64,000 nt of DNA from the NCBI RefSeq assembly GCF_055900595.2, contig NZ_CM148325.1. One strand, given 5' to 3'. Below are positions 14,221 through 15,626 of the stretch, piece by piece (positions within the stretch are counted from its first letter, which is position 1; each line of letters opens with the position of its first letter). A program made the position numbers and the translations under genes. Under the pieces are notes generated by a model. That model saw only the letters and a program-made list of their open reading frames with translations, made no database searches and had not been told where the DNA came from.

Positions 14221-15234
14221 TTAAAATAGCATTTGAGTCAAATAGCCCATCAAGATAGCCATACCTAAGATAACCGTCAGGAATGCAACTATCATCGGTA
14301 TTCTGAACATTGATTTAAGTAATATCACTTCCGTCAGACTTGCGCCGGCACTGCCGATGATTAATGCCATTAATGCTCCCAGACCCATTCCTTTTGTCAT
14401 CAGAACAGATGCCAGAGGGATAACCGCCTCTGCCCGGATATACAGCGGGATTCCGACAACGGCGCTCAATGGGATGGCGAAGGGATTATCTGCCCCTGCA
14501 TGAGCGGCAATCCACGCTGAGGGAATAAAGCCATAAATAAAAGAGCCTATTAATACCCCTAACAAAAGATATGGCAGTACATCTTTAAACTGTTGCAACG
14601 CATCTTTGGTGGCTAGTTTTATGGGATTAATACTTACCACAGCTTTGGTACTGCAACAGTTTACTACCGGTTTCTCAATGGCTTTAGCCGCTGGACTACA
14701 GCAACTCACTTTTATTGGCGTATATGTCGTCCCCGGCGAAGTTTTGGCTGGAGAGCAACAATTTGCTGATGAGCTTTTACTGGCAATGATATGACGTTCA
14801 AATCTCAGAGAATCCAGGATAATACTGGCAAGTACGGAGACGCCGGCGGCGATAATCGCGTACAACAAGGTAACTTTCCAACCAAAGGTCACCCACATTA
14901 ACCCGACGATAATGGGATTAAGTAACGGTGAAACAAATAAAAAAGTGAGAGTCGGACCAAACCCGGCTTTCGCTGACAACAATCCACGTAGCATGGGTAT
15001 TGTCGAGCAACTACAGAACGGGGTAACGGCTCCCAACAGAGCAGCCAGGAGATAGCCTCTCCCTTTTCTGGCCCCCATCATCTGCTGGATTTTATGGTCT
15101 GGCACCTTTTGTCTTATCAGGCTGACACCGGCACTAATCACCATAAACAGCAAAGAAAGCTCGACGGCGAGAAACACAAACATCTCTGCGGCATCTTGCA
15201 GCATCGCAAGCCAACTACTCATAAGTAACCTCAT
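14221..15234 (-). CDS. Two-half membrane permease, ArsP-like (putative organoarsenical/metalloid efflux permease)
   Basis: 337 aa polytopic ORF containing TPFCSCSTIP inside a predicted TM segment and a Cys-rich central loop (NCCSP..SCCSP..NCCST). Confidence 0.65.
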   Translation of the reverse strand: MRLLMSSWLAMLQDAAEMFVFLAVELSLLFMVISAGVSLIRQKVPDHKIQQMMGARKGRGYLLAALLGAVTPFCSCSTIPMLRGLLSAKAGFGPTLTFLFVSPLLNPIIVGLMWVTFGWKVTLLYAIIAAGVSVLASIILDSLRFERHIIASKSSSANCCSPAKTSPGTTYTPIKVSCCSPAAKAIEKPVVNCCSTKAVVSINPIKLATKDALQQFKDVLPYLLLGVLIGSFIYGFIPSAWIAAHAGADNPFAIPLSAVVGIPLYIRAEAVIPLASVLMTKGMGLGALMALIIGSAGASLTEVILLKSMFRIPMIVAFLTVILGMAILMGYLTQMLF

Positions 15235-15329
15235 TGAATAAAACTATATTTCCAGAATAATCGAAATGAAGTTCAGATCAAGATATTTCTGGTATTATCG
15301 AAATATCAACCAGACAGAGGGGGTGACAC

Positions 15330-15626
15330 ATGCAATTGGAAGAGGTCGCTAAGGCACTGAAAGAGTTAGGTCATCCGACCCGTTTGTTCATATTTAAGCA
15401 TCTGGTCAAAGCGGGGGAACAAGGTTTGCCGGTCGGTGAGTTGCAAAAGCAGCTTGGGATACCCGGCTCTACACTCAGTCACCATATTTCAGCACTGGTA
15501 TCGGTAGGACTGGTCAAACAAAACCGTGAGAGTCGAACGCTGATGTGTGTTTCGCAATACGCAATGCTGGAAGCGATAATTGAATTCTTACGCGAGGAGT
15601 GCTGCGTAAATAGCAAAATTGCCTGA
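15330..15626 (+). CDS. ArsR/SmtB-family winged-helix transcriptional regulator
   Basis: 98 aa ORF, HTH region LPVGELQKQLGIPGSTLSHHISAL; C-terminal vicinal Cys pair (EECCVN); divergent from the permease gene; GAGGGGG RBS. Confidence 0.75.
   Translation: MQLEEVAKALKELGHPTRLFIFKHLVKAGEQGLPVGELQKQLGIPGSTLSHHISALVSVGLVKQNRESRTLMCVSQYAMLEAIIEFLREECCVNSKIA

Follow-up and report, generated by a model that had tools for sequence, protein, structure and literature searches.

The stretch of Escherichia coli chromosome analyzed here (64,000 nucleotides of contig NZ_CM148325.1, RefSeq assembly GCF_055900595.2; hereafter the window) carries, between arsC and a yhiS-like gene, two divergent genes encoding an ArsR/SmtB-type regulator and a permease. 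Profile and motif place the pair, so far uncharacterised, in the ArsP family, and its recurrent physical linkage to ars genes ties it to arsenic. We consider it rather probable that the two genes form an efflux module that regulates itself and acts on trivalent (organo)arsenicals, which would complement ArsB. The most likely substrates would be trivalent organoarsenicals, namely methylarsenite and aromatic As(III) compounds such as reduced roxarsone and phenylarsine oxide. ArsB is not known to handle such compounds, and the permease might have some As(III)/Sb(III) activity as well. The organoarsenical specificity is what we infer; the observations that lead to it are as follows.

The window reads in reverse relative to the K-12 map, with the gene order chuA, chuS, dctR, slp, yhiS-like gene, permease, regulator, arsC, arsB, arsR, dinQ, gor. 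The regulator gene (98 aa, 15330-15626, plus strand; called arsR2 in the pESI plasmid literature) and the permease gene (minus strand) stand head to head. An original prediction, made by a model from the sequence, had placed such a pair between arsC and yhiS where K-12 has no gene, and both the open reading frames (ORFs) and the K-12 annotation agree with it. The mechanically called permease ORF extends to an in-frame upstream ATG (14221-15234, minus strand, 337 aa). The likely start, however, is the ATG at 15222 (MSSW..., 333 aa; 14221-15222), because the RefSeq call (WP_032304001.1, in an identical genome) and the starts of the homologues lie there, behind a GAGG Shine-Dalgarno sequence. The intergenic region is therefore 107 bp, not the 95 bp first reported. 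Strain Z0117EC0005 was 100% identical over a 2119-bp query (window 13641-15759). Profile matches of both proteins and synonymous-biased allele differences indicate that these are real genes and not chance ORFs. Their current annotations are "permease" and "ArsR/SmtB family transcription factor", the nearest relatives listed are named equally generically, and literature searches by protein accession, or by arsP with E. coli and arsRBC, returned nothing on the chromosomal pair.

The permease gave a full-length match to Pfam ArsP_1 (PF03773, E 1.1e-52; residues 14-334 against model positions 4-293/294), so the expectation that it belongs to the ArsP family (PF03773; Transporter Classification, TC, 2.A.119) held. 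An AlphaFold2 model built on 95 diverse relatives (pLDDT 88.3, pTM 0.85) showed eight transmembrane (TM) helices, of which TM2 is discontinuous at residues 67-70 (Thr67-Cys70), between helices H52-66 and H71-83. TM3, TM6 and TM7 are likewise discontinuous, and the two halves of the model are alike in pattern, each having one long and one short helix, then a pair of broken helices and another long helix. In secondary transporters, substrate sites often lie at helix breaks. The break of TM2 opens the motif TPFCSCSTIP (Thr67-Pro76; 14995-15024, minus strand), whose Cys70 and Cys72 are the presumed substrate-binding thiol pair. For the family, a topology of eight TM helices arranged as a 4+4 internal repeat has been described (PMC7176098); a BLASTP alignment of one half of the permease against the other was in register and not significant (E 6.6).

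A Cys-x-Cys motif is thus present in TM2, and Cys70 was conserved in at least 90% of the 95 family members. The pattern TPFCSCS[TS][IV]P was found in about 80 of the 95 full-length family representatives, at 28-60% identity. All distant members that were examined (Staphylococcus, Bacillus, bacterium NT-25 and Desulfovibrio) had TPFCSCS, and so did members without arsenic context. TPFCSCS had been taken as characteristic of organoarsenical permeases; since it is family-wide and extends to Cu/Zn exporters, its distribution marks it as a family marker and not as a substrate marker. More specific to the clade is the central loop between TM4 and TM5 (residues 145-199; 14626-14790, minus strand), which AlphaFold2 predicted as disordered (pLDDT 50-57). 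It carries the vicinal pairs Cys155-156, Cys174-175 and Cys189-190 (NCCSP, SCCSP, NCCST), so that the three central CC pairs, like the motif within a hydrophobic segment, were correctly read in the original prediction. Loops with one to five such pairs, very variable in length and sequence, mark those permeases that are paired with a regulator of this kind, whereas in the distant ars-linked members examined the loop was short and Cys-free. Neither sequence nor fold comparison matched the permease to a solved structure (best E in Foldseek 0.68), and its AFDB50 fold matches were unnamed "Permease" entries only. A Campylobacter hyointestinalis "permease" reached a TM-score of 0.82 at 33% identity to the permease model.

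The regulator belongs to the ArsR/SmtB family, with 61.9 bits against NCBIfam NF033788 (HTH_metalloreg; cutoff 55 bits) and Pfam matches to HTH_20 (E 2.4e-14) and HTH_5 (E 1.3e-6). As stated earlier from the sequence, it is 98 aa long and ends in an EECCVN-type sequence (...REECCVNSKIA). It also lacks the type-1 site ELCVCDLC (Cys32/34/37 in alpha3), the equivalent stretch being GLPVGELQKQLG. Its best PDB match was AfArsR of Acidithiobacillus ferrooxidans (6J05, E 4.7e-10), which aligned from end to end, with LTENCC opposite the regulator's LREECC. The vicinal pair Cys91-Cys92 (15600-15605, plus strand) aligned with the As(III) ligands Cys95 and Cys96 of AfArsR; the pair that had been pointed out is therefore present, but it is a known type of site and not an oddity. 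The third ligand of the type-2 site (Cys95, Cys96, Cys102) is absent, because the regulator has no equivalent of Cys102 and ends six residues after the pair. A further cysteine after the CC pair occurred in 27 of 121 relatives and was missing from the window regulator and from 94 of the 121.

A third cysteine of the regulator, Cys73 (15546-15548, plus strand), had been overlooked. It was invariant among the relatives (121/121, compared with 118/121 for Cys91 and 117/121 for Cys92), while AfArsR has Tyr at this position. In ArsR/SmtB dimers, the C-terminus of the partner's alpha5 approaches the region before alpha5, as in the alpha5 sites of SmtB and CzrA. Placed in the wing strand immediately ahead of alpha5, Cys73 could therefore be a third ligand. 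With this third invariant cysteine, the inducer selectivity is not readable from the sequence. A parallel by description is SpArsR of Shewanella putrefaciens 200, a repressor selective for methylarsenite, MAs(III), which uses Cys101 and Cys102 only (PMC11868830, PMC13236881). Like the regulator, it has its vicinal pair at the position of AfArsR Cys95/96 and no third C-terminal cysteine; moreover, in related loci the E. coli-type regulator stands directly upstream of arsH, a gene of organoarsenical resistance. The numbering (101/102 versus 91/92) suggests a longer N-terminus in SpArsR, and the regulator has the invariant Cys73 in addition to the SpArsR-type C-terminal pattern.

The two genes share a divergent promoter region of 107 bp (15223-15329). 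Promoter-like hexamers were located at 15234-15261 (plus strand) on the regulator side and at 15309-15280 (minus strand) on the permease side, but such sites were no more frequent in the region than in shuffled sequence, and so are weak evidence when taken alone. Two operator-like palindromes were found in addition. The one at 15246-15267 (ATATTTC-N10-GAAAT) overlaps the -10 element of the regulator's promoter-like site, and the one at 15283-15306 (ATATTTC-N10-GAAATAT) overlaps the promoter-like site of the permease. In an alignment, both palindromes were conserved among E. coli, Citrobacter, Salmonella, the plasmids and Aeromonas, whereas the flanking intergenic bases varied. A scan of the 64-kb window returned both sites on both strands and a single further match with two mismatches at 7158-7179, that is, five matches against 0.05 expected in shuffles. 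Such a layout is that of a repressor controlling its own gene and the divergent permease gene, with the palindromes as predicted operators; operators and Shine-Dalgarno sequences are intact in the window. The pattern was absent upstream of arsRBC in the same scan, and control of arsRBC by this regulator was accordingly rejected. The proposal of a separately regulated unit beside arsRBC was supported, and genomic context ties the unit to arsenic.

The genomic context of relatives was compared among loci that included 25, most of them close, from one scan of genome contigs; at least 50% identity defined the close clade. All 16 complete loci of this clade have the divergent regulator-permease pair, which also occurs in Shewanella sp. 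D64, in Vibrio splendidus and on a Desulfovibrio conjugative element. In 10 of the 16 the pair directly abuts ars genes, and the arrangements are of at least five kinds. The pair adjoins arsRBC in Escherichia and arsRDABC in Citrobacter. In Salmonella, Citrobacter sp. NCU1 and the IncF/pESI-like plasmids, arsH directly follows the regulator, and on these plasmids it is followed by a sigma-70-like gene, arsD and arsA. In Aeromonas, the regulator is followed by an AfArsR-type arsR, arsD, arsA, acr3 and arsC, and in Buttiauxella the permease converges on arsCBR, with arsH beyond. As an ars cluster takes up only a few kb in a genome of several Mb, chance falls far short of accounting for the linkage, even with shared ancestry allowed for. 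The arsR that adjoins the regulator in Aeromonas is of the classic three-Cys type (EECCSGHPEQC), which suggests that the two sensors divide the work. Distant family members are often ars-linked as well, as in Staphylococcus pSSAP1, bacterium NT-25 and the Desulfovibrio locus, which adjoins an S-adenosylmethionine (SAM)-methyltransferase gene, possibly arsM. These distant members are typically accompanied by a small thioredoxin-like gene, and in NT-25 also by a rhodanese gene.

Among characterised proteins, Campylobacter jejuni ArsP (TC 2.A.119.1.1) resembles the permease in its PF03773/TC family, its approximately eight TM helices and its position next to ars genes. It is an efflux permease for methylarsenite and trivalent roxarsone (Chen et al. 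2015, as summarised in PMC6205960) and does not transport As(III) (PMC6205960). Identity between the two is probably around 30%, and the likeness rests on family, profile and motif. The E. coli protein differs by its long disordered loop with three CC pairs, and the pair has its own divergent regulator, whereas C. jejuni ArsP is part of an arsPRC-acr3 operon. Transport by the C. jejuni protein reportedly depends on two conserved cysteines. Much closer are the copies on the pESI-like megaplasmids of Salmonella Infantis and on IncF plasmids (permease 79%, regulator 95-99% identical), which have the same divergent layout and the same operators. There the regulator heads the string of arsH, sigma-70-like gene, arsD and arsA, whereas the chromosomal copy of E. 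coli is on its own and runs towards arsC. The pESI-like locus thus combines the permease with arsR2-arsH-arsD-arsA and has neither arsB nor acr3. For S. Infantis with pESI-like plasmids, minimum inhibitory concentrations (MICs) of 8 µg/mL phenylarsine oxide, against 0.25 for LT2, and of 128 arsenite, against 64 for LT2, have been reported (PMC9219668, Table 2). The authors of that study did not recognise the permease and remarked on the lack of a partner for ArsA. These MICs fit an organoarsenical module.

A mechanism can be proposed in which substrate, inducer and energetics are inferred, beside the family membership, gene integrity, selection, operators, cysteines and ars linkage described in this study. 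The 98-aa regulator would bind, as an ArsR-family dimer, to the two palindromes of the 107-bp region and repress both divergent promoters. A trivalent arsenical would then be bound by Cys91 and Cys92 at the C-terminal end of alpha5, possibly together with Cys73 of the partner subunit, and the loaded repressor would leave the DNA, as homology to AfArsR and SpArsR suggests. By analogy with C. jejuni ArsP, the eight-TM permease would bind the arsenical at the TM2 break, with Cys70 and Cys72 as its ligands, and export would be driven by the proton-motive force. More speculatively, the flexible loop with its three CC pairs may collect substrate in the manner of ArsD. It is conceivable, if doubtful, that the clade represents a distinct subtype of arsenical pump and sensor, defined by an undescribed inter-subunit Cys73-Cys91/Cys92 site and a functional CC-pair loop. 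The hypervariable loop could then be a built-in, ArsD-like substrate collector or a docking site for ArsA, and the latter would explain the pESI clusters that have arsD-arsA but neither arsB nor acr3.

The history of the locus was traced by comparison with other Escherichia genomes. K-12 has no annotated gene in the 628 bp between yhiS and arsC. Bases 1-316 of this intergenic region match window 13641-13956 (87%) and bases 416-628 match window 15557-15759 (78%); the stretch between, 13957-15556 in the window, has no K-12 counterpart, its place being taken by about 100 bp of decayed sequence. A relic of the regulator remains in K-12 (YTMLDAIIGISRREYCVNSKIA, against residues 77-98; blastx E 1.5e-5), and a weak one of the permease, 16 aa with a stop against residues 203-218 (E 0.26, plus a 17-nt blastn match). 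These relics of both genes indicate deletions in K-12. In E. fergusonii and E. whittamii, arsC, regulator and permease occupy the corresponding site. E. coli SCPM-O-B-8794 retains half a permease only (residues 183-333), and the intact pair was present in 2223 of 5426 complete E. coli genomes (~41%). From the site shared with other species, the K-12 relics and the partial E. coli loci, we conclude that the pair is ancestral in Escherichia and was repeatedly lost, with K-12 among the losers. The original prediction had described the pair as inserted, which the shared site and the relics contradict; mobile-element insertion was rejected on these grounds and because no insertion sequence (IS) elements or integrases were found at the borders of the pair in the window.

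Where the pair is present, each gene evolves under purifying selection: two intact E. coli alleles with ~5% DNA divergence differed at 15 synonymous and no non-synonymous codons in the regulator, and at 26 synonymous and nine non-synonymous codons in the permease. Between the same alleles, arsB and arsC diverged to the same extent as the pair, and the pair shares its history with the adjoining ars operon.

Several observations weigh against an organoarsenical efflux module. No ars gene lies near the pair in 6 of the 16 close-clade loci, nor in Shewanella sp. D64 and V. splendidus; stand-alone pairs of this kind were seen in A. veronii, Limnobaculum, Psychromonas, Pseudoalteromonas and, as a second locus, E. 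coli E69. The NCBIfam search of the permease matched no ArsP-specific model, its only named matches being SO_0444 (NF033936, Cu/Zn efflux; E 3.4e-31) and SaoE (NF040736), both far under cutoff, and the CSC motif is common to Cu/Zn exporters of the superfamily. As third ligand, the invariant Cys73 could make the regulator a sensor of As(III) or of a metal. The positive-inside count under a strict eight-TM topology gave no clear cytoplasmic assignment for the loop, and the pESI phenotype could be explained by ArsH alone. Some of these points would suit an exporter of soft metals (Cu, Zn, Cd, Hg or Ag), in which the three cysteines of the regulator form a metal site. The permease shares its superfamily and the CSC motif with the SO_0444 family, its best named match, and with SaoE. 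This motif is the most strongly conserved one between those two families, and within SO_0444 it at times takes the form USC, with selenocysteine (bioRxiv 10.1101/2022.07.06.499078). A Cys-rich loop is a typical trait of metal transporters, and ars-free pairs recur in Vibrio, Shewanella, Psychromonas, Pseudoalteromonas, Limnobaculum and some Aeromonas. Metal efflux is nevertheless unlikely in our estimate. With 108.7 bits against a curated cutoff of 300 for SO_0444 and 83.4 against 325 for SaoE, the permease belongs to neither family. In contrast to these families, no metal-resistance genes were seen in the permease neighbourhoods examined: the pair has joined ars genes repeatedly, and never cop, czc, cad or mer. 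The regulator, moreover, resembles an As(III) sensor most closely, and the ligand cysteines align.

Export of inorganic As(III)/Sb(III), sensed through Cys73 of one subunit and Cys91/92 of the other and perhaps with the permease as membrane partner of ArsA, we judge improbable to a similar degree. The invariance of Cys73 and its place just before alpha5, which the partner's alpha5 C-terminus approaches in ArsR/SmtB dimers, speak for such a sensor. CC pairs bind As(III) in ArsD, the pESI-like clusters have arsD-arsA without arsB or acr3 and an unnamed ArsA partner (PMC9219668), and ArsP has been proposed as a partner of ArsA (Castillo and Saier 2010, as cited in PMC6205960). On the other hand, E. 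coli, Citrobacter and Aeromonas have the module alongside ArsB or Acr3 and a distinct ArsR of the As(III) type, and this points to another task for it. As(III) is not transported by C. jejuni ArsP (PMC6205960), and the pESI strains gain 2-fold in arsenite as opposed to 32-fold in phenylarsine oxide resistance (PMC9219668). An exporter of sulfur compounds responding to redox state or reactive sulfur, with disulfide sensing as in BigR, SqrR or RexT, would be quite a long shot. The regulator weakly resembles BigR and YgaV by NCBIfam and PDB comparison, a vicinal Cys pair is the redox switch of RexT (PMC8960804), and thioredoxin-like genes, with a rhodanese gene in NT-25, accompany the distant members. 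Its cysteines, however, are not at the positions used by BigR and SqrR (alpha2 and alpha5) or RexT (alpha3) but align with the AfArsR site; the BigR model gave 38.5 bits against a cutoff of 155, and the close clade is linked to ars and not to sulfur genes. Hardly credible is a decaying leftover without function in this strain. The locus is often degraded, as the K-12 relics, the half permease of SCPM-O-B-8794 and its not being intact in ~59% of complete E. coli genomes illustrate, but here both reading frames, the operators and the Shine-Dalgarno sequences are intact, and the non-synonymous differences (0/15 in the regulator, 9/35 in the permease) indicate purifying selection. Efflux of trivalent (organo)arsenicals is the account that we favor.

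Further features of the neighbourhood were recorded. The canonical arsRBC operon (15760-17895, minus strand, RefSeq annotation) lies outside the pair and consists of arsC (15760-16185, minus strand; NCBIfam PRK10026, 305.9 bits), arsB (16198-17487, minus strand; RefSeq annotation) and arsR (17542-17895, minus strand; PRK10141, 232.6 bits), the last of which carries ELCVCDLC. Between the stops of the regulator and arsC lies a palindromic element resembling repetitive extragenic palindromes or bacterial interspersed mosaic elements (REP/BIME-like; GTAGGTCGGATAAGACGCG...CGCATCCGACA, 15659-15720), which is also kept in K-12, beside the gene relic. A structured RNA at the pair was rejected, as Rfam returned only two copies of the AgrB antisense RNA (RF02891, 90 bits each; 18045-18127 and 18278-18362, minus strand), which adjoin dinQ between arsR and gor. 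On the other side, the yhiS-like gene (12417-13640, minus strand, 407 aa) is intact in the window, whereas yhiS is split by IS5 in K-12. It had no NCBIfam match and is absent at the corresponding locus of E. whittamii and E. fergusonii, and two E. coli alleles of it showed 86.7% DNA identity, compared with 99.1% for the adjoining slp. The haem-uptake genes chuA and chuS directly adjoin dctR (window 9830-10858 and upstream), whereas K-12 and strain Res13-Sevr-PER06-05-b-A have dctR followed by yhiD, hdeB and hdeA at the corresponding site.

In other genomes, the pair was observed in several mobile or additional settings. In Citrobacter (loci L004-L006, ~1200-7100), the block of arsRDABC, regulator and permease lies inside a lambdoid prophage, flanked by replication genes (DnaT, lambda P) and by DinI/RusA, and is thus arsenic-resistance cargo on a phage. 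At a second chromosomal site of E. coli E69 (L022, 9611-10996), a 74%-identical pair stands away from ars genes, and so does a 47%-identical pair on IncC plasmids (L016, 6569-8029), which adjoins an ISL3 transposase. A sigma-70 gene resembling extracytoplasmic function (ECF) factors, with annotated copies of 181-204 aa, travels with the pair in several lineages (L014, 5207-5752; L015, 5217-5762; L046, 5485-6099; L027, 4731-5258; L035, 8957-9436; L038, 9038-9475). The pESI-like plasmids and those of C. arsenatis have it between arsH and arsD, and it overlaps the 3' end of the regulator gene in V. splendidus. No anti-sigma gene was seen at these loci, and the window lacks this small sigma-70 gene.

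The pair stands beside arsRBC in about 41% of fully sequenced E. coli and in E. fergusonii and E. whittamii, and a close copy (~79% protein identity) is found on many resistance plasmids of the IncF and pESI types in E. coli and Salmonella. It has escaped study because K-12 lost it. Common as it is in E. coli and on resistance plasmids, the pair is not surprising in kind; its clade-specific features are the vicinal-cysteine loop and the Cys73/Cys91/Cys92 triad. The regulator and its operator pair could be tried as an organoarsenical biosensor. The permease could supply the membrane part that is missing from plasmid ars clusters under co-selection with antibiotic resistance genes, for example blaCTX-M-65. 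If the pair does export trivalent organoarsenicals, E. coli and Salmonella of the gut and of livestock would be protected from methylarsenite that microbes around them produce, and from feed additives of the roxarsone type in their reduced form.

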